A DNA stretch of 64,000 bases, from the NCBI GenBank assembly GCA_965213765.1, contig OZ243926.1, forward strand, positions 4,368,479 through 4,432,478, written 5' to 3'. The translations under genes were made by a program, and so were the position numbers. The stretch is from Rhodospirillales bacterium. GTDB lineage: Bacteria; Pseudomonadota; Alphaproteobacteria; Rhodospirillales; UBA2165. Under the pieces are notes generated by a model that did no database searches, had not been told where the DNA came from, and saw nothing but the letters and a program-made list of their open reading frames with translations. This document shows, in pieces, positions 28,896 to 46,415 of the stretch (positions within the stretch are counted from its first letter, which is position 1; each line of letters begins with the position of its first letter).

Positions 28896-30098
28896 TTAGG
28901 GTAGGCGTCCGCCGGGCGCGACGCCCCAAGCCATATCAACGATTTTCTCGTCCGCGGCCTCATCGCAGGCCTTCTTGAACGCGGCCATCACCTTGGCGCC
29001 GGTGGTTTCGTTCCAGAACCAATCGGCGATCTGCATGCTCGACGCGATGCAGCCTTCGGCCGCCATGGCCTCCGAGTAGTAGGCCTTGAAGTCCTCGCCG
29101 GCGAGCTTCAGCGCCATGGCCAGCGGGAACTCCGGATTGGGACTGCGGATACCCTCGTCCTCGACGAAGGCCAGGAGCAACTCGCTCGCCATCTCGATAT
29201 TCATTCCGCTGACACCGACGGTGGTTCTGCCGCGGCGCGCCTTGGCCTTCTCATAGGCCGGACGGAGGACTTCGATCTCGGCGTTCATCGCAGCTCTGAG
29301 GCCGGCCAGATCATCGGTGTCCTCAAACGCCGGCGGCAGCTCGATGGCGCAGGTCCAACCGTCAGCCGGCTTGCCGTCCGGCGGGTCATCGCCGAAGTCC
29401 GCCAGCACGGGCCCCGAGGGGCTCTCCATGAGTTTGAGTTGCTGCTTCAGCACCTGTTTCTGGAACTCGCCGTCGGTCGGTGCGCCATAAGGGCGGCCCA
29501 ACTCAAATGGCACGGCGAGACCCCTCGGCACGCCGATCTTCTCGGTATGGAGCTTGATCAGGCTGATGATCGCCGTCACAAAGCCTTCCCGCTCAAGGTA
29601 GTTGGCCAGCACGCTCACGGCGCGCGTGCACATGGGTCAGACGCCCGATAAGGCGACCGCGTCGACGTTGTCCTCTTTGAGAATTGCCGCGACCTCCTTG
29701 GCATTCTGCTCCATGCCGGTGGGGTCGGTCGCGCCCATGAACGAGACATGATTCTTCGCGATTGAGCCGATGAAGCCTTCTTCGGCGAGTTCCCTAATTC
29801 GATCGATCGGGAAGGACACGTTGATGTCTTCCTGAAATCCCGACCGGTCATAGTTGGACGAAACGTGGCTCATAAACAGGTCCGCGCCGTCCGTCTCGGA
29901 AGGAATGACGCGATAATCCGCATCGCCTCTGAAAAACGGGCGGTCGGTTTTGAGATGAAGTCCGGCGGAAGAGACAATCGCCACCCGCATTTCGCTGAGC
30001 GGTTTCGCCTCGTTCCAGGCACTACTCCCGACCTCCGGCATTACGAGGTCGGTCATCCGCTGCGCCATCGCGGGCGCCAGCGCGTCCATCCTAACCAT
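28896..30098 (-). CDS. GrdB/PrdB-family (glycine/betaine/D-proline reductase selenoprotein B-like) protein, candidate selenoprotein with an in-frame TGA at 29637-29639 (U-P-M-C)
   Basis: ORFs 29637-30098 and 28896-29633 are in one frame, separated only by TGA-CCC. Read-through gives ...NVDAVALSGV-U-PMCTRAVSVLANYLEREG. Landmarks SAGLHLKTD, FPIDRIRELAEEGFIG and FMG resemble PrdB/GrdB, with the TGA at their Sec position. GGAG precedes the ATG at 30098. The gene is divergent from selA. Confidence 0.7.
29609..29629 (-). promoter_or_regulatory. SECIS-like hairpin downstream of TGA 29637-29639
   Basis: The mRNA reads UGA-CCCAUGU-GCACGC-GCGCCGUGA-GCGUGC. This is a 6-bp GC-rich stem with a 9-nt loop containing GU. 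The apical loop begins 16 nt from the U of UGA, the same offset as at 23301. Confidence 0.5.
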
Positions 30099-30273
30099 GT
30101 ATCACTCCATCCAATGAGTTAACGAATTCGCTGGCGGGACTAGATCGGAATTCAAAATTCCTGTCAAACCCCACTCTCCCTTTGGTGCGCTTGCCACTAT
30201 TCGGGAACCTTGACGGACCCAAATCGGCGAAATAGCCTCCGGGGACTCAGGGAAATCGGGCGTCTGTTTGACC

Positions 30274-31701
30274 ATGACAGAGACCTCCAAACCGCTGCGG
30301 GCCGTGTTGCCGTCGGTAGATAAACTGCTGCGCCATGATGATGGCCGGGCGCTGGCCGAGGCCTACGGCCGTGCGGCGACCACGGATGCCGTCCGCGCCG
30401 TCATCGACGAATTGCGGCAACGAATCCTCGGCGCCGGCGAGGATGCCGATACCGCGGAAGAGGCCGTGCTGGCTTCCGTCGCGGATCTGTTGGCGGCGAA
30501 ATCGGCGCCGTCGCTCAAAAAAGTCTTCAACCTGACGGGCACGGTCCTGCACACCAACCTGGGCCGCGCACCCCTGCCGCGGGAGGCGATCGAGGCCATG
30601 ACCCTCGTAGCCGGCGGCGCCTCCAACCTGGAATACGATTTGGAAGGCGGTAAGCGGGGCGACCGGGACGTTCACGTGGATGAGTTGTTGGCCGAGCTGA
30701 CCGGCGCCGAGGCGGCGACGGTGGTGAACAACAACGCGGCGGCGGTCCTGCTGGTCCTCAATACGTTGGCCAAGGGCAAGGAGGTTCCCGTTTCCCGCGG
30801 CCAGCTGGTGGAGATCGGCGGCTCGTTCCGCATGCCCGACATTATCCGCCGGGCCGGCTGCAAAATGCATGAGGTCGGGACCACCAACCGGACACATCTT
30901 AAGGATTTCGAAGAGGCCATCAGCGACAAGACGGCGTTGTTGTTGAAGGTCCATACCTCCAATTACGAGGTGCAGGGCTTCACCAAGGAGGTGAGCGACA
31001 CTGAACTCGCCGCGCTGGCACGGAAACACGGCATTCCCTGCGTTGATGATTTAGGCAGCGGCACGTTGGTGGACCTCACTCAATTCGGCCTGCCCCACGA
31101 ACCGACGGCGGCGGAAGCGTTGGCCCACGGCATGTCCGTGGTGACGTTCTCCGGCGACAAGCTGCTGGGCGGGCCGCAGGCCGGCATGATCGTCGGCAAA
31201 AGGGAACTCATCGACAAGATCAAGAAGAACCCGATGAAGCGGGCCTTGCGGATCGACAAGGTGACCATGGCGGCGCTGAGCGCCGTGCTCCGCCTCTATC
31301 TCGATCCCGACCGCCTCGCGGAGCGCATGCCGGCGCTCAGGCTGCTGGCGCGCCAAGCCGATGAAATCGCCGCGACCGGCAAGCGGATCGTCGATCCGGT
31401 GTCCCGGGCGTTTGACGGGATCGCCGCCGTTGAGTTGGTCGGCTGCCAGAGCCAGATCGGCAGCGGTTCCCTGCCGGTGGAGCGACTGGACAGCGTCGCC
31501 CTCGGCATTACCCCGTCAACCGGCAAGCGGGGCGGCGGTGCCGCGCTCAATCGAATCGCCAAGGCGTTCCGCTCACTCCCCATCCCGGTCATTGGCCGGG
31601 TTCACGAAGGCGCCTTCCTTCTCGATCTCCGCTGCCTTGAAGACGTAGAAGCCTTCGTCGGCCAGCTCGACGGGTTGACGCCGGGGGGCGCGTCCAGGTG
31701 A
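30274..31701 (+). CDS. selA: L-seryl-tRNA(Sec) selenium transferase
   Basis: [66 protein letters not shown] and [13 protein letters not shown] (PLP-Lys context). ORF 30268-31701; the ATG at 30274 is preferred. Confidence 0.9.
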
Positions 31702-33626
31702 TCGTCGCGACCGCCGGCCACATAGACCACGGCAAGACCCTACTGGTGCGGACCTTGACCGGGGTCGATACCGACCGGCTGCCCGAAGAGAAAAAACGCG
31801 GCATGTCCATCGATCTGGGCTTCGCTTACAAGCCGATGGCCAGCGGCAAGGTCATGGGATTTGTCGACGTGCCGGGTCACGAGCGCTTCGTTCGCAACAT
31901 GCTGGCCGGCGTTTCCGGCATCGATTACGCGCTGCTGGTCATCGCCGCCGACGACGGACCCATGCCCCAGACCGAGGAGCACCTGGCGATCCTCGATCTC
32001 CTCGGAATCGATCAAGGGGTGGTCGCGCTGACCAAGATCGACCGGGTCGACGAAGCGAGGATCAAGGACGTCACCGAACAGATCGAGTTCCTGTTGATGG
32101 AGACCGGCCTCGAGGGATCGGAAATCCTGCCTGTGTCGGCGGTGACCGGCGATGGGATTGATGAACTCAAGGAGCATCTGGCCATCGCTTCCGAGCTGAT
32201 CGGCGACCGGGACGTTCACGGCAATTTCCGCCTCGCCGTCGACCGGGCATTTACCCTCCAGGGCGCCGGCCTCATCGTCACCGGCTCGGTGTTCGCGGGG
32301 GCGGTGAATGTGGGCGATCAGCTGACCCTCACCCCCGGCGGCCAGAGCGTCCGGGTGCGCGGCATCCACGCCCAGAACGAGGAAGCGGAGGCGGGTGCGG
32401 CCGGTCAGCGCTGCGCCCTCAACATCACCGGCCAGAACCTCACGAAGGACGACGTGCACCGGGGCGGCTGGCTGGTCGCCGATGCGATCCACGATCCCGT
32501 TTCCCGGTTCGATGCCCGGCTCCGGGTGCTGCCGAGCGAGGCCAAGTCTCTCAAGCACTGGACGCCGGTCCATGTCCATCTGGGCGCCGCCGAAATTCCG
32601 GGCCGTGTCGCGGTCCTCGAAGACAAGAACATCCCGCCCGGCGAGAGCGCGTTGGTGCAGATCGTTCTCGACCGGCGGATCGGCGCGCTGCGCGGCGACG
32701 GATTCATTCTTCGCGATCAGTCGGCGACCCGGACGGTCGCCGGCGGCCGTGTACTCGACCCCCACGGCCCCGCCCGGGGCCGTGCCAAGCCGGAACGTCT
32801 TGCCGCTATCGCCGCCATGGAGGAACGCACCGCCGCCGATGCGCTCCGGAAGATTCTCGACCAGCAGGCGCTGGGCGTCGATCTCCCGGCGTTCATCGTC
32901 AGCTGGAACCTGAACGACGATGAACAGGCCGCGCTTTGGGACGCGGTCGAGATCGTCCGTGCCGGTGAGAATCTGGAGACCGGCTACGCGCCCGCGCACT
33001 GGACCAAAATCCGGGACGGCATCACGGCCGCGCTCCGGGCGTGGCACGAAAACGCACCCGAGAAGCCCGGGCCCAGTGCCGACGGGCTTCGCCGCGAGAC
33101 CGGTGTCCGGATGCCGACCAAACGGTTTACGCCGATTATCGAAACCCTGGTCGCCGACGGAACCATCATCAACCGGGGCGCCAGCTATTTCCTGCCGGGC
33201 TTCGAGCCCCAACTGTCGTCCAAGGACGAAGCGCTGTGGAAGCGGGTCAAGCCGATCCTCGAAGACGGGCATACCAAGCCGCCGGTGGTCCACGACATCG
33301 CCGAGAGGATCAAATCGCCCGCCAAGGCGGTGGAGAGCTTCCTCGTCCGCTGCGCCCGGCTGGGCCTCGTCTATCGCGTCGCCAAGAACCGGTTTCTGCT
33401 TCCCGATGCGGTCCTCGAACTCGGCGAGATCGCCGAGGCCTTGGGCCGCGAGAGCAAGGAGCAGGGCTTCGGCGCCGCTGACTTCCGGGACCGCTCGGGG
33501 GTCGGGCGCAACCTCGCCATCGAGATTCTCGAATATTTCGATCATGCCGGCCTCACCTGGCGGAGCGGCAACGAGCGCAAGGTCCTCAAACCGGCCGCCG
33601 AGGTTTTCGGCGACACACCTGGATGA
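31698..33626 (+). CDS. selB: selenocysteine-specific translation elongation factor
   Basis: [48 protein letters not shown] and ALTKIDRV (GTPase G1-G4), plus a long winged-helix C-terminal extension. The GTG start overlaps the selA stop as GTGA. Confidence 0.9.
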
Positions 33627-33645: not shown

Positions 33646-35277
33646 CTAACCCCGATCCATGATCGACGGCGCGGCGAGCGAACCCGATCCCCGCCGGGGG
33701 AATTTGGCAAAGGCATAGCCCTGCTGATGACAAGCCTTGGTGATCACCAGCGCCTTCCAGAACCCGCCGCCGATGAGGACGAACACGCCGGCGGCGCCCA
33801 GCACCCAGACCGGCACGGCGGCCCACGCGGCGGCCGCGGCGAACAGCACCACGGGGATCAGGTGCCCCGACACATTGAGCATGGCTGTCGATGATTCCAG
33901 GATTCCCCGGCTCAACGGGCCGATGCCGTTGGCCTTGGCGCCCTGCACATACATTCGCCACAGGCCGTAATTGATCAGGCCCAGAAGAATGCCGGCGAGA
34001 GGCAGCAGGAAACCGCCCTCGAATGAAATCCCGTAGACCGCGAACACGATGGCCGAGAGGCCGACTCCTTCGTAGAGGCCGGTGGCCACCAGCATGGTCG
34101 GCATCATGGCGACCCGCCAGGTGGGGATGCCCTTGGCCATGTGCAAAATCTTGGCTTGGCAATAGAGAAAGACCAGGGCGGCGGCGCCCGCCAGGAAATG
34201 AAGCGACGGCAGCTGCCAGAGGAAGCCGGCGGCGATGGCCGGATACAGCACCCCGACGGCATAGATTTCGCGGCTCATCCATGAAGTTTGCGGGCGCAGG
34301 ATGGCAAACGGGGCGCGCAGCTTTCGGCCGATCTTGAGCCAGACGAAAAACAGGCCGGCGGCGATGATCCCGGCGGCGCCCAGGTTCATCTTGGTGAGCG
34401 TGGCGCCGTCGAGGCCGGCGAACAGATGCAGCAGGTAGGCGACCACGATCATGCCGGCGCCGAACCCGCCGAGGATGAAATTCATCGCCGCCCGCATGTC
34501 CCAGAAGGTCTGGGGCTGGCCGACCAGCGGATTGGCCGGATCGCTCATCGCCTCGTCGCCGGTATCCGCCGCATTGAGGTCCCGGCCCGGCACCGCCGGC
34601 GTCTCGTAGAGATATTTGATCTGCGGATCGGTGCCGAGCTCCGAATGCATCTGGAAATGGCTGTTTTCCTCCGCAAGCCTGGAGACGTGGCTGTCGGGGT
34701 CGTTGAAGTCGCCGAATTGGATCGCACTGGCAATGCACGACGCGGCACAGGCCGGGGTCGCGTCCGGATCCACCCCCGGCGACAGGCCGGCGGCGATACC
34801 GTCATCGACCCGGTCAATGCAGAAGGTGCACTTCTGGGCGACGCCGAACCGTTCGTCGTGGGCGACCGCTTCTTCCTGAAGCGTCTCCTCTCCGAAATAG
34901 AACTCCTTGTCGTGAACGATGGTCCGCGCCTGATAGGGGCAGGCGACGGCGCAGGATGCGCAGCCGATACACAGATCGTAGTCCATGGTGACCAGCCCGT
35001 CGGCCCGCTGCTTGGTGGCACCGGTCGGGCAGACGGGCACGCAGGGCGGCTCGGCGCAGTGCTGGCAGCCGACCACCATGAACACCCGCTCCACATCGGG
35101 GAAGGCGCCGGTTTCCACGTCCAGAACCCGCCGCCATTGAACCCCGGGGACCGTATCGTTGGCATGCTTGCAGGCGATGGTGCAGGTCTGACAGCCGACG
35201 CAGCGATTGACGTCGACCACCATGCCCCATCTGCGCTCCTCGGCGCGCCGGGACGGATCGGATGAAACCCCGTTCAC
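33646..35277 (-). CDS. fused 4Fe-4S ferredoxin-type (DmsB/PsrB/PadC-like) and polytopic membrane-anchor (DmsC/NrfD/PadD-like) subunit
   Basis: The N-terminal roughly 230 aa carry CVGCQTCTIAC, CQHCAEPPCVPVCP, CIGCASCAVACP and CTFC. The C-terminal roughly 300 aa are highly hydrophobic with multiple predicted TM helices. It lies downstream of the Mo subunit. Confidence 0.8.
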   Translation of the reverse strand: MNGVSSDPSRRAEERRWGMVVDVNRCVGCQTCTIACKHANDTVPGVQWRRVLDVETGAFPDVERVFMVVGCQHCAEPPCVPVCPTGATKQRADGLVTMDYDLCIGCASCAVACPYQARTIVHDKEFYFGEETLQEEAVAHDERFGVAQKCTFCIDRVDDGIAAGLSPGVDPDATPACAASCIASAIQFGDFNDPDSHVSRLAEENSHFQMHSELGTDPQIKYLYETPAVPGRDLNAADTGDEAMSDPANPLVGQPQTFWDMRAAMNFILGGFGAGMIVVAYLLHLFAGLDGATLTKMNLGAAGIIAAGLFFVWLKIGRKLRAPFAILRPQTSWMSREIYAVGVLYPAIAAGFLWQLPSLHFLAGAAALVFLYCQAKILHMAKGIPTWRVAMMPTMLVATGLYEGVGLSAIVFAVYGISFEGGFLLPLAGILLGLINYGLWRMYVQGAKANGIGPLSRGILESSTAMLNVSGHLIPVVLFAAAAAWAAVPVWVLGAAGVFVLIGGGFWKALVITKACHQQGYAFAKFPRRGSGSLAAPSIMDRG

Positions 35278-35314
35278 GATATCGGGCCTTCATTGAGGCC
35301 GCCCCCGCCCCGGC

Positions 35315-35339
35315 GCTCCCCCCTCGAAGGGGAGGGAGC
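35315..35339 (-). other. intercistronic GC-rich hairpin between the Mo subunit and FeS/membrane subunit genes
   Basis: GCTCCCCCCTCGAAGGGGAGGGAGC forms 10 pairs (including one G.U wobble) with one mismatch around a GAA loop. It sits in the 112-nt gap between 35390 and 35277. Confidence 0.6.
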
Positions 35340-35389
35340 ATGAGGTAGGGGCGTCAGCGCCGTCGATATCGAGCGTGCGGCCGCCTCGT

Positions 35390-38134
35390 TCATGCCGCCG
35401 CCCGCTTGGGCCCGTCGCCCTTGATTATCTTCACCCGCGTGATGTCCGAGCCGCTGCCCGTGGAATCGGTCAGCTTAAGGGACAGATCGGTCAGCGAGTT
35501 CAGGCTCGGCAGGTGCAGATCCTTGGCGTAGGGTGTCTTCCAATGATCGAACTGACCGATCATCAGGACCGTATCCGGCCGGATCCCTTCCCGGAGCACC
35601 GCATGGCCGCGGGTCTCGCCGGAGATCGACTGGATGGTCACCGGATCACCCTCCTCAAGGCCCAGTTCCCGGGCGCGTTTCCGGTTGATGATAACGCCCT
35701 TGTGGCCGGCGATATTGTTGGCCACTTCGTTGATCATCGGAATGCCCACATTGGCGCCCCAGGAATACTGCATGGAGCGCGAGGTCAGCGCCCAGAAGGG
35801 GAAGGCGTCCGGATCGCCGCCCTGATCCCTGACGTAGTTGAGCCAGATATCCGGGAACCGTTGGTAGGTCGGCATGGGCTCGTACTCTTCGAGCTGTTCG
35901 TCCCACCATTCGACGCCGATTTCATGGAGCCGGTGGGCGAGCTGGGTGCCGTGGCGCTGGATGCGTTCCTGATAGGGCAGCTCGAAACGGATGCCGTTGG
36001 CCTTGAGGTGCGGGTACAGATACCAGTGAAGCTTGGAGAACGGCCTGAGCATGTAGCCGTGCTCCTTGAACCAGTCGATGCCGACCACGTTCTCGCCGTT
36101 CGACATGTCGTGGCTCGCCGCCTTGGCGGTGGCGTCCCAAATCTCCTCAAGCCCGTGGGGCTTGGCCTCATCGAGGCCGTAATCGTAGTCGCCGGTCACC
36201 AGCCGCATGCCGGCGGCGCCCTTATTGATGGCCTTGTTGTAGGCCTCCAGGATGCCGCTGCGCTCGGCGAGCGCCGTCGCGATGTCGGTCATGTCCTTGG
36301 AATCGACTACCGTGTCGCCGGCGGGCTGACGGATGCACCAGCCCTCGTGACCCCAGAGCTGCTCGATGAACTTGGTGTTGCCGAGCTGGATCAGTTGGAG
36401 GCTTTCCAGGTCGGTGTTTTCCGGCAGCAGGATGTCGGCGAAGTGGTTGGTCTCGTCGTGGGTGTAGGCGAAGGCGACGATGAACGGGAACTCGGCCACC
36501 CGCTCCGCGACCTCGGGCGCATTCCAGGACGAGATCGCGGGATTGGTCCGGTAACAGAACCACATGGCGGGCTTGGTCGGCTTCGGCCAATTCTCCGGCG
36601 GGCGCTTCTGGAACAGCCACGGCAGGTGGGCGGGCCCCAGCGCCGGCGACCACGCCGAATCGGCGACCAGCGGGACCAGCGTCCGGAAGGCGTTGCGGAT
36701 GTGGGGCTTGGCCTGCCATTCCTGCTTGGAGGTTTCGTTGAACGGGAACTCCATGAAACCGTCCCGGTTGATCACTGCCGACGTCTTGCGGTCATCGGCG
36801 GGCCGGTTGAGCTTCACGTTGGTGCCGATCATGCCGCCCGGCACTTCGAGGGCGCCGACCAGGGTCAGCAGCAGCGTCCGTGCCCAGCAGGCATTGTAGC
36901 CGCCCCAGCCATTGTTGACCGTCTTGCCCAGCAGGATGGCGACGGGCCGGTGGGGGAGGGTCCGGCCCTCGATTTCGATGCTCGCGCCGACGGTGGCCTG
37001 CTCGATGAACTCGTCGGCCACCTTGCGGATCTTTTCGGCGGGGACATCGCACTCTTCCGCCGCCCATTCCGGCGAATAGGGCTCGATATGGTCGAGCAGC
37101 TTCTGGTGGGCGGGCTGCGCCTCCACCGAAGCGTGCTCCCAGCGCTGCCCGTCGGGGCCGTCCTCCACCCCCGCGCAGGTATAGGCGCCCTCCAGGGCGG
37201 GATCCTTGATCTCCGCATCGAAGGGCTTGGCCGTGTTGTCGGCGAGGTCCCAGATCAGGGGTTTGAGGCTGACGGGATCGCGCATGAAGTAGCCGTTGGG
37301 ACCGATCAGGTAGGGCGCGTTGGAATCGTCGGCGATCCGTTCCATGTCGCAGATTTCCCGCCACGGACGCTCGATCAGGATGCGGTTGATCATGGCATAG
37401 AGGAAGGCGACGTCGGTCTTGGGCTTGACCGGGATCCATTCGGCCGATACCGCGCCGGTCACCGACAGGTGCGGTTCGATCTGAACCCGCTTCATGCCCC
37501 GGGCCCGCCCGTCCGCGTGCCGCCAGATGCCGGCGACGCCGGCCGACGCATCCCCGTTATGGCCGAAGGAGACGATGTAATTGCAGTGGGGCGTGTCGGG
37601 CGCGACGATAAACGCCCGGTGCCACAACTCGCCGTACAGGTGTTCGGAGTGATAGCACTTCACCCCCTGGCCCGCGCCGAAGCCGAGATCGACTCCGCCG
37701 AAGGCAGAGAGCAGGGCGGGGAAGGTACCCATGTACTGGGTCGGCGTGCCGCCGCCGCCGAAGCTGGCGGCGATTTTGGGATACCCGGATTCGTCCAGCG
37801 GCCCGTCGGCCAACGTGTCCTTGATCTTCTTGCCGACGATGTCGAGGGCCTCGTCCCAGGAGATCGGCACGAAGCCGGGATCCTCGTCCCTGCCTTTCCT
37901 GGGATTGGTCCGCTTCATCGGCGAGGCGATGCGGTGCGGGTTATAGGTCTTCTGGATCAGCCCGTAGGCCTTGACGCACACCCGGCCGCCGCCGGGATGT
38001 TCGTCCTCGATGTCGTAGTTGGATTCGATGCGGGTCGCGACGCCGTCCTCGACCTCGACCTTCATCAGATCGGGCCCGGCGACGCACTGGTAGCAGAAAA
38101 TCGGGACCTGTTTCTTGGTTTTGATTTCGTTCAT
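35390..38134 (-). CDS. molybdopterin (bis-PGD) oxidoreductase catalytic subunit, cytoplasmic type (PadB-like / DMSO reductase family)
   Basis: 914 aa with no twin-arginine leader. The N-terminal motif FCYQCVAGPD...RVCVKAYG keeps only part of the CxxCxxxC...C FS0 motif. VKCYHSEH lies at the expected Mo-ligand region (Cys, no TGA). There is a C-terminal molydopterin dinucleotide-binding-type beta-barrel (GDPVTIQS...G..VLREGIRPD). Confidence 0.8.
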   Translation of the reverse strand: MNEIKTKKQVPIFCYQCVAGPDLMKVEVEDGVATRIESNYDIEDEHPGGGRVCVKAYGLIQKTYNPHRIASPMKRTNPRKGRDEDPGFVPISWDEALDIVGKKIKDTLADGPLDESGYPKIAASFGGGGTPTQYMGTFPALLSAFGGVDLGFGAGQGVKCYHSEHLYGELWHRAFIVAPDTPHCNYIVSFGHNGDASAGVAGIWRHADGRARGMKRVQIEPHLSVTGAVSAEWIPVKPKTDVAFLYAMINRILIERPWREICDMERIADDSNAPYLIGPNGYFMRDPVSLKPLIWDLADNTAKPFDAEIKDPALEGAYTCAGVEDGPDGQRWEHASVEAQPAHQKLLDHIEPYSPEWAAEECDVPAEKIRKVADEFIEQATVGASIEIEGRTLPHRPVAILLGKTVNNGWGGYNACWARTLLLTLVGALEVPGGMIGTNVKLNRPADDRKTSAVINRDGFMEFPFNETSKQEWQAKPHIRNAFRTLVPLVADSAWSPALGPAHLPWLFQKRPPENWPKPTKPAMWFCYRTNPAISSWNAPEVAERVAEFPFIVAFAYTHDETNHFADILLPENTDLESLQLIQLGNTKFIEQLWGHEGWCIRQPAGDTVVDSKDMTDIATALAERSGILEAYNKAINKGAAGMRLVTGDYDYGLDEAKPHGLEEIWDATAKAASHDMSNGENVVGIDWFKEHGYMLRPFSKLHWYLYPHLKANGIRFELPYQERIQRHGTQLAHRLHEIGVEWWDEQLEEYEPMPTYQRFPDIWLNYVRDQGGDPDAFPFWALTSRSMQYSWGANVGIPMINEVANNIAGHKGVIINRKRARELGLEEGDPVTIQSISGETRGHAVLREGIRPDTVLMIGQFDHWKTPYAKDLHLPSLNSLTDLSLKLTDSTGSGSDITRVKIIKGDGPKRAAA

Positions 38135-38148
38135 GGAACCCAGGCGGG

Positions 38149-38559
38149 TCAGCCCGCTCCCTCGATTTTTTTCCGTTTGGCGATCAGGCGTTCCCTGGTC
38201 TTTTCATTGTCGACGACGAACCGGTTGTGCTTGCCGCGCCCGACCTGTTCGACGGCGTCGGTGACCACCGCTTCCATCATCACCATCCGGCCGTCGACGC
38301 CGATAACCTCGATGCTGACCTCGACCCAGGTACCGGCCGGGGTCGGCGCCATGTGATCGACGGCGACATGGGTGCCGACCGTATTCTGCTCGTCGGGCAG
38401 ATGCCGCTGGATGAATTCCTGACACGTCATCTCGATGTCTTCGACCATGGAGGGTGTCGAATAGACCGCGAGTTCCTCGTCCATATGAGAGATAATCCGG
38501 CCGGCATCGATATCGATCCGCCTTGTGTGCTTCATGCCGGCCTTGACGTCTTCAATCAT
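38149..38559 (-). CDS. hotdog-fold thioesterase (FlK / fluoroacetyl-CoA thioesterase-like family)
   Basis: 136 aa. ...AVYSTPSMVEDIEMTCQEFI...EQNTVGTHVAVDHMAPTPAGTWVEV...GKHNRFVV is the pattern of small hotdog thioesterases. It is the first gene of the Mo-enzyme operon. Confidence 0.55.
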   Translation of the reverse strand: MIEDVKAGMKHTRRIDIDAGRIISHMDEELAVYSTPSMVEDIEMTCQEFIQRHLPDEQNTVGTHVAVDHMAPTPAGTWVEVSIEVIGVDGRMVMMEAVVTDAVEQVGRGKHNRFVVDNEKTRERLIAKRKKIEGAG

Positions 38560-38790
38560 GTCGCCTCCAACCCCCGTTCGGCCGGGGCCATTCGCCCCAG
38601 AGGAAGTCTATCCCCCATATAATGATCGGGTGCAGAACATCTTAGCCGGGGAGCGCCCCATGCCAAGCGCCTTCCCGTATCCCGTCCAGAGCCCTGACCG
38701 GTCGCCGGAGCGTTGCAGAATCCGCATGACCTCAACCCATTGAAAGCATTCAATTTCGTTTTCAAATTCCAAGTCCCGACGTTTTGGCGC

Positions 38791-42778: not shown

Positions 42779-42869
42779 GGAGGGGTGGCCGAGCGGCTGA
42801 AGGCGCACGCTTGGAAAGCGTGTATACGTTAATAGCGTATCGTGGGTTCGAATCCCACTCCCTCCGCCA
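42779..42869 (+). tRNA. tRNA-Ser (anticodon GGA)
   Basis: Manual cloverleaf: acceptor GGAGGGG/TCCCTCC (one G.U), anticodon stem CACGC/GCGTG with loop TT-GGA-AA, a long variable arm TATACGTTAATAGCGTATC (class II), T-arm GTGGG-TTCGAAT-CCCAC, discriminator G and an encoded CCA. Confidence 0.9.
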
Positions 42870-42959
42870 TTACACCTCGTTTTGGCGGTTTTCCGCTAAC
42901 TTCCTGATTTCAAATCGCGATTTCTTCCAAGTGGTACACAAAGGTGGTACACACGATGG

Positions 42960-43346
42960 ATGGAAGACGTGCCGAAACCACAGGGCCTTCAGCTTCGAAG
43001 ATCGGGCTACTATTTCCGAATTCGCATTCCCGAAGATGTTCGAAAACACTACGAAACGAACGAGATTGTTCGGAGCCTAGGAACACGTGATTACAAGAGC
43101 GCAGTTAGGCAGCTCAAATTCACGGCGGCTAAGATTGAAGCGGAGTTCGAAGTATATCGCCTCCGGAGTTTGTCGGCGGAGGCAGCTAAGCCGATAGAGT
43201 TGAACCGCGATCAAGCGTTCAAGCTTGCTCTGCTTTGGTTCACTACAGAAAACCGGAATATCGCTGCCCAGGACGAGGCCGTGCAACCGGCTGCACTAGA
43301 CCAGACATTAGACAATTTGGACGAGGACATATTCCCGCTAACCTAA
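42960..43346 (+). pseudogene. 5' fragment of a tyrosine-recombinase (phage-type integrase) gene
   Basis: LQLRRSGYYFRIRIPEDVRKHY...RSLGTRDYKSAVR is typical of the N-terminal arm-binding region of tRNA-associated integrases. Only 128 aa remain and no catalytic domain. It lies immediately 3' of tRNA-Ser in a lower-GC segment. Confidence 0.6.
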
Positions 43347-43720
43347 TATTTTTCGACACGTCAGGACCGACAAAATCGATCTGGTATTACGAGCAGCCAA
43401 AACCGGATGGGCGTAAGAAATATTCCAAGACTGCGCCATTGACATATGACGAGTTAGCAACCTGTCTCGAATGGTGGGGAAACAGAGAAGGAAGCGGGCA
43501 AGCCTGGGAAGTAGATGCTGCAGGGCTAATCGAACGCGACGACGATGATCGAGTGATCGGGTGCAATCTCGACATTAAGAACCCTCACGACGATGCTGCG
43601 GTCGATCACCGGCCGCCGTCGGAAATTGTCGAAGCCATTATTTCGAATGAGCATCGAGTGTTAGAAATCATGGGAGACATAAGGTCATCACTTTCGGAGG
43701 CTAGAGCGCCGGGCGTTTAA
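43329..43720 (+). pseudogene. hsdM: 3' fragment of a type I restriction-modification methyltransferase gene (hsdM)
   Basis: ANLIFFDTSGPTKSIWYYEQ...PLTYDEL...W...NLDIKNP matches the C-terminal region of HsdM. The N-terminal roughly 400 aa are absent. The last codons and stop now come from the IS630 end. Confidence 0.6.
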
Positions 43721-44763
43721 TCTGCAACATAGCCAGTGTCTTTGAGGTAGTTCCAGCATTCGTTTGGGTCGAAGAGTTCGCAGATGTCGCCGACGGCGCG
43801 CCAGAGGGTGTCATAGGTTCTTGCATTGGCTTTTCGCAGCCGTGTCTTGAGCTTGGCGAAGGCCTGCTCGATGGGGTTGAGATCGGGCGAGTACTTGGGC
43901 AGGAACAGGAACCAGGCGCCCTGCTCGGCGAGGGCTTTTGCCGCCCGCGGGCTTTTATGGACATTGAGATTGTCGAGGATCACCACGTCGCCCTGTCTCA
44001 AGCGTGGCGCTAGTTGGGTGCGCACATAGGCATCGAAGGCCGGTCCGTCCATGGCCCCGTCGACAATCCAGGGAGCGACAAGTCCATCGCAGCGCAGGCC
44101 GGCGATGAAGGTTTGGGTGTGCCATTTGCCGAAGGGGGCATTGGCCACGAGCCGTTCTCCCCGAGGGCTGCGCCCGCGCAAGGGCGTCATGTTGGTCTTC
44201 ACGCTGGTCTCGTCGACAAAGACGAGCCTCCCCGGCTGGCGGCGCATGAAGGGCTGACGGAGTTTGATCCAGGTGCGGCGCGCGGCCCTGACGTCAGAGC
44301 GTTCTTTCTCCGCGGCCAGCAGCGTTTTTTTTATAGCTAAACCCTGCCTTGCACAAAAGCTTGGACAGGTTCGACGGATCAGCCGTAACGCCATGTTCCG
44401 CCTTCAACCAGGCAGCGAGGTCCGCCATGGTGATATCCGGCTCGGCCTTTACCTGCGCAATCAGGACATCGCGGTGGCATCCTAGCTTGCCCGACCCGCT
44501 GGGCCGGCCCTGCCGGGCGGGGTCCACCGAACCGGTGGCCGCATAGCGGGCGTGAATGCGCACCGCCGTCGAAGGCGCGACCTCAAACTGAGCCGCAACT
44601 TCACGGCGCGACTTGCCCGCCGCAATGCCTCGTATCATCCGAAGACGAAGATCGTTCGATATGGCTTTTCCCATAGGGCACCTCCTACACCCCATGGAAT
44701 CATCACCGAAAGCTAAAGGGAATCCCCATAATCAAATCGATTCAACTTTCTCGCCCGATGCTC
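43704..44763 (-). mobile_element. IS630-family insertion sequence (about 1.06 kb) with TA target duplication inside a CTAG site
   Basis: Imperfect terminal inverted repeats are (CTA)GAGCGCCGGGCG at 43701-43715 and CGCCCGATGCTC(TAG) at 44752-44766, matching 13 of 15. The flanks are C-TA...TA-G. It encodes an HTH plus DDE transposase. Confidence 0.8.
43717..44674 (-). CDS. IS630-family transposase in two frames: HTH part 44294-44674 and DDE part 43717 to about 44333, joined at an A8 tract
   Basis: The N-terminal frame MGKAISNDLRLRMIRGIAAGKSRREVAAQFEV... is preceded by TAGGAGGTG. The DDE frame reads ...VFVDETSV...VILDNLNVHK...LPKYSPDLNPIEQAF. The frames overlap at AGCTATAAAAAAAACGCT (T8 at 44325-44332 on the plus strand). 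The DDE frame is +1 relative to the HTH frame. Confidence 0.75.
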
Positions 44764-44769
44764 TAGTTG

Positions 44770-45984
44770 ATGACTTGGCGCAAGTTTCAATTGTCGACCG
44801 TATGCACTGAAGTTGATCGTTCGGAGAACGTTCAGCCTGAAGCAACATATCGTTTATTGGGTATGCGGTCCCAGATTGGCGGGCCGTTCTTAAGAGAGAC
44901 CAAATTTGGAAGTGAATTATCGGCAACCAAGCTGAACAAAGTCCGGACCGGCGATTTCATTTATAGCCGCCTTTTTGCTTGGCAAGGTTCGTTTGGTGTA
45001 ATCCCACCTGAACTCGACGGTTGTTATGTCTCAAATGAGTTTCCACTTTTTGCCATCGACGAGACCCGACTTTGTAGTCGTTTTTTGACGTATTGGTTTG
45101 GTTTGCGGCCAACTCAGCTTGAGGTCGAACAGCATTGCTACGGATCAACACCCGGCACTAGAAACCGTTTCAAGGAAGTCTTCTTCAAACAGCTCATGGT
45201 GCCGGTACCGCCGCTTGAGGCGCAAATTCGAGTGGTCGCCAAACTGGACCAAGTCGCGAAACTTATTGAAGACCGAAAGAAGACAATAGTAGCCGTCGAT
45301 AGTGATCTCGATGCGCTCCTTGCCAACGCCTTTGCTCAAATCGTCGAAGGAGCAAGTTATCTTCCGATGGAGGAGGTTGCACCTCTCGTACGTCGACCCG
45401 TCGATGTACAACCGGATGAAGTCTATCCCGAGCTCGGCGTTAGATCGTTCGGGCGAGGCATCTTTCACAAGCCAACACTTAAGGGTTCTGAGCTCACTTG
45501 GCAAAAGTTGTTCTTAGTCCGCGAGGGTGATCTCGTATTCAGCAATATCAAGGCTTGGGAAGGAGCCTTTGCTGTGGCGGAACGTGGAGATGATGGTCGT
45601 GTAGGCTCTCATCGATATCTCACCTGTGTTCCTGCCCCCGGTTTAGCAACTGCACCTTTCGTTTGCTATTATCTTCAAACGCGTGAAGGCATTGAAAAAG
45701 TCCAAGCCGCATCCCCAGGGAGCGCAGATCGTAACCGAACGTTGGGCCAGAAGAGGCTTGCTGCTATCACAGTGCCTACCCCTTCGATCGAACGGCAACG
45801 ATGGTTTGACGATATTCAATCTAAAGTTCGGGAACTGGGAACGATCCGTGCCGAAACGGCAAATGACATTGATGCCCTTTTACCTTCAATGCTTCATGAG
45901 ATATTTGGCAATGCAGCACCAGGGGTCAAGCAACCGACGTTCGTTAAATCTGCTGAACCGACGCTCCGCATTGCGACCGGATAG
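44770..45984 (+). CDS. hsdS: type I restriction enzyme specificity subunit (orphan)
   Basis: Two target-recognition halves each carry a Y.S.LF.WQG/IKAWEG-like core. Conserved spacer helices are PPLEAQIRVVAKLDQV and PSIERQRWFDDIQSKV. There is no intact hsdM or hsdR in the window. Confidence 0.75.
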   Translation: MTWRKFQLSTVCTEVDRSENVQPEATYRLLGMRSQIGGPFLRETKFGSELSATKLNKVRTGDFIYSRLFAWQGSFGVIPPELDGCYVSNEFPLFAIDETRLCSRFLTYWFGLRPTQLEVEQHCYGSTPGTRNRFKEVFFKQLMVPVPPLEAQIRVVAKLDQVAKLIEDRKKTIVAVDSDLDALLANAFAQIVEGASYLPMEEVAPLVRRPVDVQPDEVYPELGVRSFGRGIFHKPTLKGSELTWQKLFLVREGDLVFSNIKAWEGAFAVAERGDDGRVGSHRYLTCVPAPGLATAPFVCYYLQTREGIEKVQAASPGSADRNRTLGQKRLAAITVPTPSIERQRWFDDIQSKVRELGTIRAETANDIDALLPSMLHEIFGNAAPGVKQPTFVKSAEPTLRIATG

Positions 45985-45987
45985 TGT

Positions 45988-46415
45988 TCAACTCGTTCGC
46001 TGCGGTCCCCTAAAAGATAGAGATGGGGGTTTGATCTCCACTAGCGCTTCCTTCAAATCACGCGCCTCGGCACGCAGCGCTTTGACCTCATTACTGGTCG
46101 CTTGGCGGGCCGTGTCCCCGGCAAGGCGTTTCTTGCCAGCCTCCAGGAACTCCTTCGACCAACTGTAATACAGGCTCTCGGCAATACCCTCACGTCGGCA
46201 CAGCGAAGCGATACTCTCCTCGCCACGCAGTCCTTCAAGGACAATGCGGATCTTCTCTTCCGTTGAATGCTTGCGCCGTGTCTTGCGGCGGATATCCCGG
46301 ACAACCTTCTCGGCCGGGTCTATCTTGCTCATCGATTTCTGCCTCATCTTCGTTCCCTTCGGTCACTACGATGAGCCAGAAATCCTCCCTTAGGAAAACC
46401 CCCCAGTGTGTCCCA
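45988..46415 (-). mobile_element. IS3-family remnant (left end plus truncated OrfA)
   Basis: The OrfA-like ORF (45988-46332) reads MSKIDPAEKVVRDIRRKTRRKHSTEEKIRIVLEGLRGEESIASLCRREGIAESLYYSWSKEFLEAGKKRL...EVKALRAEARDLKE, then diverges at about 46041. There is no OrfB/DDE part. A TG...-type terminus lies near 46411-46415. Confidence 0.65.

Follow-up and report, generated by a model that had tools for sequence, protein, structure and literature searches.

A probable PadBCD-type molybdenum oxidoreductase whose iron-sulfur and membrane-anchor subunits are fused in a Rhodospirillales bacterium

The window analyzed here (a 64,000-nucleotide stretch of the single 4.56-Mb, 100% complete contig of a Rhodospirillales bacterium) carries at 33646-38559 an operon of three minus-strand open reading frames, encoding a thioesterase, a molybdenum-bisPGD catalytic (alpha) subunit and a fused iron-sulfur and membrane-anchor subunit, with the order and coordinates given in the original prediction. 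The first gene (38149..38559) encodes a FlK-family hotdog thioesterase of 136 aa, and the second (35390..38134) a PadB-like alpha subunit of 914 aa. The third (33646..35277) begins with GTG and encodes a PadC-PadD fusion of 543 aa; an ATG at 35223 is an alternative start that would yield 525 aa. Upstream of the operon a weak sigma-70-like promoter candidate (TTGGCA-16-TAAGAT, 38639..38666, minus strand) is suggested by a pattern match of 9/12, and a GC-rich hairpin, read from the sequence and single-copy in the genome, lies at 35315..35339 (minus strand) in the 112-bp gap between the alpha gene and the fused gene.

On the plus strand the selA-selB genes (30268-33626) run towards the pad operon, the facing stop codons lying 19 bp apart, an arrangement kept within the host's family only. 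A functional link between the two was considered and rejected: the three proteins of the operon have no in-frame TGA, and the convergence is therefore treated as chromosomal neighbourhood. Adjoining selA-selB is a PrdB/GrdB-like selenoprotein gene (28896-30098, minus strand), consisting of two apparent ORFs that are joined via an in-frame TGA at 29634-29636 (…LSGV-U-PMC…, UxxC) and match consecutive parts of TIGR04483; the tRNA-Sec gene is found shortly beyond the window, at host genome position 4,438,814. A small decayed island of lower GC occupies 42779-46347 of the window: a tRNA-Ser(GGA) precedes fragments of integrase-like and type I restriction-modification genes, together with IS remnants.

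In the alpha subunit 13 residues precede the motif CYQCVAGPD, the first Cys of which is residue 14. The absence of a twin-arginine leader, claimed from the start, was borne out, as RRxF occurs in neither the query nor any of 120 homologues; a Tat leader read from a start further upstream is ruled out, because the frame upstream of the alpha start is open for 23 codons only and holds neither a start codon nor RRxF. The structure model of the alpha subunit (pLDDT 93) has ArrA and PsrA as its closest solved folds, at 18-19% identity. Cys160 (37655..37657, minus strand; GVKCxHSEH) is the predicted Mo ligand: it is invariant in the alpha-subunit alignment, and in a profile it matches the cysteine of SLC/SVC in PsrA/ArrA, which we take to be the Mo ligand in those enzymes.

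The FS0 motif, defined by homologue alignment and profile as Cys14-x2-Cys17-x4-Asp22...Cys53 (37976..38095, minus strand), had been described as degenerate. The third Cys is indeed absent, but the motif is neither degenerate nor peculiar to this protein, as CxxCxxGPD is found in 120/120 best homologues and also in Thauera PadB (CYNCVAGPD in strain K172); this invariance excludes motif decay or a pseudogene. In the profile alignment the third-Cys position of PsrA/ArrA meets the motif with a one-residue gap, and in two deep relatives the Asp position is occupied by Cys (P0245) or His (P0249). A Cys-to-Asp ligand swap is thus a better reading than decay: to judge from the alignments Asp22 probably replaces the third Cys in a 3Cys/1Asp [4Fe-4S] cluster, for which Nxr offers a solved precedent (PMC8387239), and a [3Fe-4S] cluster may instead occupy the site. 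The deep PadB-like relatives (P0242-P0254) come from Syntrophales, Thermodesulfobacteriota and Chloroflexota, strict anaerobes, and vary between Asp, Cys and His in their third ligand position; P0249 has a twin-arginine leader.

The 543-aa frame has no internal stop; its four cluster motifs hold 16 Cys, and the half that comes after them is hydrophobic. Its PadC-like domain with four [4Fe-4S] motifs (residues 16-225; 34603..35232, minus strand) is identified by identity to K172 PadC and by its PsrB fold (2vpw_B, TMt 0.84), and is joined by a conserved acidic linker of about 30 aa (residues 226-255; 34513..34602, minus strand) to a PadD-like NrfD/PsrC-type anchor (33688..34512, minus strand), whose eight membrane helices form two four-helix bundles and match PsrC (2vpw_C, TMt 0.69). 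The predicted fusion is real and not a frameshift artefact, since no stop or frameshift is hidden in the frame, at least 120 full-length homologues (58-95% identity, 95-100% coverage) share it, and linker length is conserved (32-33 aa between anchor motifs in 108/111 scored); in 113 fused homologues the linker is conserved in both residues and length.

The structure model of the fused protein (pLDDT 89, pTM 0.90) has eight long membrane helices, both termini are predicted on the cytoplasmic side, and the anchor loops carry 16 Lys and Arg on the FeS side versus 0 on the opposite face. Across 113 sequences the mean counts on the two faces are 18.1 versus 0.9, for 100 versus 50 residues. This charge bias, together with the absence of a Tat leader, leads to the prediction that the catalytic parts are cytoplasmic and the anchor inverted, as the original prediction had proposed for the active site and as has been proposed for the NrfD anchor of SoeC (PMC8076601). 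A natural PadC-PadD fusion fixes the orientation of such an inverted NrfD anchor, and the two-chain complex would be a simpler target for the family's first structure, including its likely Asp-ligated FS0.

Comparison with Thauera aromatica K172 (reference locus from CP028339.1; PadC = AVR87049.1 / WP_107219520.1) gives 55% identity between the alpha subunit and PadB across 908 aa; in the fused chain the FeS half is 59% identical to PadC and the anchor half 36% identical to PadD. Many homologues of both chains are named phenylacetyl-CoA:acceptor oxidoreductase by JGI; in NCBIfam no PadB model exceeds its cut-off, and a plasmid search returned nothing above 29% identity. In trees built with IQ-TREE (quick mode, SH-aLRT) and with FastTree, which agree, the alpha subunit and PadB form a group from which other DMSO-reductase lineages are excluded, and the host's own Soe-like alpha subunit forms an outgroup. 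The fused clade has an SH-aLRT of 100 and its sister, the clade of K172 PadB, one of 98, with joint support of 95; the FastTree supports are 0.95/0.98/1.0, the last being that of the joint PadB clade. The alpha subunit thus falls outside the clade that contains the characterized T. aromatica enzyme and in its sister clade, for which reason it is filed as a PadBCD variant and not as a strict orthologue. In the two clades 322 positions are fixed for the same residue and only 6 for different ones, and the segments around Cys160 are nearly identical.

In the K172 PadB clade padC and padD are mostly separate. Of the 77 nearest loci in GTDB, 64 have the fused form and 0 the split one; 10 run into the end of a contig, and 3 lack padCD downstream. 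The fusion, described beforehand as unusual, is in fact widespread in uncultured Proteobacteria. It may have a single origin; one more fusion (L116) lies inside the split clade, and the tree therefore needs two changes. The best 80 GTDB matches all come from uncultured Alpha-, Beta- or Gammaproteobacteria, the closest relative (97%) being a Rhodospirillales MAG, and the gene is present in 18/24 genomes from the family of the host, the main copy at 66-97% identity. Some relatives hold 2-3 paralogues in other contexts. PadB-family alpha genes without padC or padD directly downstream were seen at L061, L072, L073, L114, L115 and L118, some of them second or third paralogues in one genome. Two Mo-bisPGD paralogues of ~1000 aa (L185:886-3921 and L188:619-3627), distantly BisC/pyrogallol-transhydroxylase-like, have an unusual ~190-aa N-terminal extension (MKFSL…) and are each followed by an FeS subunit of ~200 aa. 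Another Mo enzyme (L112:13741-17914; 867 aa, four-Cys) shows 28% identity to the query; together with genes for FeS and anchor subunits it adjoins a padE-I cluster in a betaproteobacterial MAG.

From this homology and the sister-clade relationship the operon probably encodes a membrane-bound oxidoreductase of the PadBCD type, a fused-anchor sister version of the known enzyme, in support of the acyl-CoA substrate suggested originally; an identity of 55% does not fix the substrate in the Mo-bisPGD superfamily. A Soe-like role, as a sulfite:quinone or other sulfur-compound oxidoreductase, had been left open on account of sulfur genes in the window (sat, a sulfatase and a cysG-like gene). These lie 7-27 kb from the operon, and sat, sulfatase, cysG and soeA recur in 0/77 loci. 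Near 3.37 Mb the host carries a further locus of three genes that resembles SoeABC; it is called Soe-like on the strength of a CYMCACRC motif and its architecture, an assignment that found no backing in a curated SoeA model. Its alpha subunit is 25% identical to the query and falls far outside the clade. The overall architecture and N-side orientation are the same as those of SoeABC (PMC8076601), but a CoA thioesterase would be a senseless partner for an enzyme of sulfite, and the Soe-like role is thus very improbable.

The thioesterase matches the Pfam FlK model PF22636 (E 4e-30) and has a hotdog fold with an intact Thr/Glu/His triad, Thr42/Glu50/His76 of FlK corresponding to Thr35/Glu43/His69 in alignment to FlK structures; such proteins are often wrongly named 'LysR' at NCBI. 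It stands directly upstream of padB in 34/77 fused-clade loci and in 46/50 split loci (these mostly from one betaproteobacterial family, with some duplicates), where the typical order is thioesterase-padB-padC-padD-paaK-hcr. Because it heads split operons too, the thioesterase is a normal pad partner: its presence, as first noted, stands, but it is a family-wide trait that includes unfused pad operons and not an oddity of this locus. It is proposed to be an arylglyoxylyl-CoA hydrolase.

In the survey of gene neighbourhoods for CoA ligases versus sulfur genes, ligases recur. Besides the thioesterase, the partners in the 77 loci are a FadD-type ligase (17), UbiD (6), a ThDP enzyme (5), a PaaK-like ligase (4), IorAB (4) and hcrA (3), a set of acyl-CoA and aromatic genes that supports a PadBCD-type enzyme. 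The FadD-type ligase of the fused clade is PRK06187-like and not PaaK/PadJ-like, which, together with the paralogues in other contexts, speaks against a strict Pad reading and means that substrates may differ. The same alpha-oxidation could accordingly act on another acyl-CoA (heteroaryl-, indolyl-, naphthyl- or ring-substituted acetyl-CoA) supplied by that ligase. In favour of this, the fused clade forms its own lineage with good support, paralogues coexist in single genomes, true PadG is found in only 4/50 genomes, and in the host an orthologue of the ligase (50-60%; host genome 1,001,222-1,002,787) adjoins IorAB at 1.00-1.01 Mb with a UbiD decarboxylase alongside. Set against these points are the 6 fixed inter-clade differences versus 322 shared positions, the presence of a PaaK-like ligase in four fused loci (L014, L020, L028 and L034), and the order thioesterase-padB-padCD-paaK-hcr in three (L019, L020 and L028), as in split operons; another acyl-CoA as substrate is therefore unlikely, and is still the most serious of the rivals.

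The host inventory bears on how such a product could be used. Across the whole genome no PadI over cut-off and no PadE/G/H or class I benzoyl-CoA reductase (BcrA/B/C) match was obtained; family searches for PaaA, NirK, NosZ and CcoN gave no match, and none of the nine Molybdopterin-family proteins is NarG or NapA. Present are boxB and boxC over cut-off, hcrA, a benzoate-CoA ligase family gene, an aa3 oxidase (ctaD) and two IorAB pairs, and the host is apparently aerobic. As boxA was not found, BoxB here needs another reductant. At 489,749-510,278 of the host genome boxC-boxB stands without boxA, and hcrCAB (4-hydroxybenzoyl-CoA reductase over cut-off) occurs there in a host without class I benzoyl-CoA reductase. 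A large aromatic-catabolism region at 985,001-1,056,000 holds the FadD-type ligase and UbiD, a 4HBT thioesterase, both IorAB pairs, an HpaB-like monooxygenase, a LigAB-like dioxygenase, an AOR-like protein, two PaaK-like ligases and a Rieske oxygenase.

In a set of 50 fused-clade genomes the counts are 49 for boxB, 46 for IorA, 20 for bcrB, and 4 each for true PadG and paaA. In a class baseline of 150 genomes, which includes small genomes, boxB occurs in 26/150 and paaA in 14/150. The link between boxB and the fused clade is strong, in counts uncorrected for kinship among genomes that are not all independent; in the six genomes of the host's family without a padB match boxB and IorA are each found in 5/6. 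Depletion of paaA was discarded as a signal, since 4/50 equals the class baseline; among boxB carriers the comparison (4/49 versus 7/26) is suggestive.

The alpha-oxidation chemistry proposed here is based on the Pad pathway as summarized in PMC5109826 and on background knowledge of the Pad enzyme. The best reading, from homology and motifs, is an O2-independent alpha-oxidation of arylacetyl-CoA, in which the two-chain complex would oxidize the alpha-methylene to the 2-oxo level at the Cys160-ligated Mo centre with oxygen from water, the likeliest substrate being phenylacetyl- or 4-hydroxyphenylacetyl-CoA. From FS0 (Cys14, Cys17, Asp22, Cys53) electrons would travel along the fused subunit's four clusters and reach quinone in the inverted eight-helix anchor, and the quinol would most likely feed O2 respiration, while the FlK thioesterase would free arylglyoxylate and CoA. 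What the analysis establishes is the anatomy and homology of the genes, their position on the tree, the predicted topology and the gene inventory; the substrate, the Asp ligation, the thioesterase substrate and all downstream steps are inferences. The substrate could be supplied by IorAB, which makes arylacetyl-CoA from arylpyruvates (PMC5109826), or by an unlinked CoA ligase. The product would reach benzoyl-CoA via IorAB or a ThDP decarboxylase route, and benzoyl-CoA would be cleaved by BoxBC with O2 rather than enter Bcr; action of IorAB on phenylglyoxylate is our inference, a literature search having found no demonstration of it.

A link from Pad to Box was raised as a possibility in Dechloromarinus (PMC4453571); in the present host such a route is given somewhat less than an even chance. 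The more specific proposal is still more tentative: a hybrid aromatic amino acid and arylacetate route in aerobic, mostly uncultured Proteobacteria, in which the two-chain PadB/CD enzyme and FlK would shorten the side chain independently of O2 and IorAB would double as a phenylglyoxylate:ferredoxin oxidoreductase, its reduced ferredoxin replacing the absent BoxA, with BoxBC cleavage and neither Paa epoxidase, PadE-I nor Bcr. The enzyme could also be a reductase, or serve CoA salvage or detoxification, converting dead-end arylacetyl-CoA to excreted arylglyoxylate, and not growth catabolism. FlK-type thioesterase detoxifies in its type organism, the host lacks padE-I, bcr and boxA, and its operon is separated from ligase and regulator genes; conservation of the gene in 18/24 family members and the occurrence of boxB in 49/50 genomes, which points to onward catabolism, make this improbable.

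The fused clade matters for annotation, as padB and padC are routinely taken as markers of anaerobic aromatic degradation. With 30/50 fused-clade genomes showing no benzoyl-CoA reductase, 49 carrying boxB, and a host that looks aerobic, that reading may fail for many MAGs of marine, sponge and sludge origin; a host without Bcr or Paa would test the Pad-to-Box link cleanly.

Of the known systems, PadBCD of K172 is closest, sharing the alpha-FeS-anchor order, the absence of a Tat leader, and the motifs CxxCxxGPD and GVKCxHSEH. Unlike the present operon, where a ~30-aa linker joins the two chains and a FlK thioesterase comes first, the K172 operon has separate padC and padD and is headed by an fdhD-like gene, and the present host is without padE-I, bcr and nitrate respiration. 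SoeABC of Allochromatium vinosum and Aquifex aeolicus resembles the complex in its Tat-less Mo subunit, four-cluster subunit and inverted eight-helix NrfD anchor, but the host's Soe-like alpha is only ~25% identical, has a four-Cys motif and belongs to three separate genes, and the conserved context of the operon contains no sulfur genes. PsrABC (PDB 2VPW) and ArrAB (PDB 6CZ7) are the nearest solved folds for all three domains and have a Cys-type Mo-ligand region, whereas they are periplasm-facing reductases with a four-Cys FS0, separate B and C chains and 18-19% structural identity in alpha. NxrA of Kuenenia (PDB 7B04), a distant type II enzyme, has its Asp at another motif position (C67, D71, C75, C115), yet shares with the proposed FS0 a 3Cys/1Asp cluster (PMC8387239).
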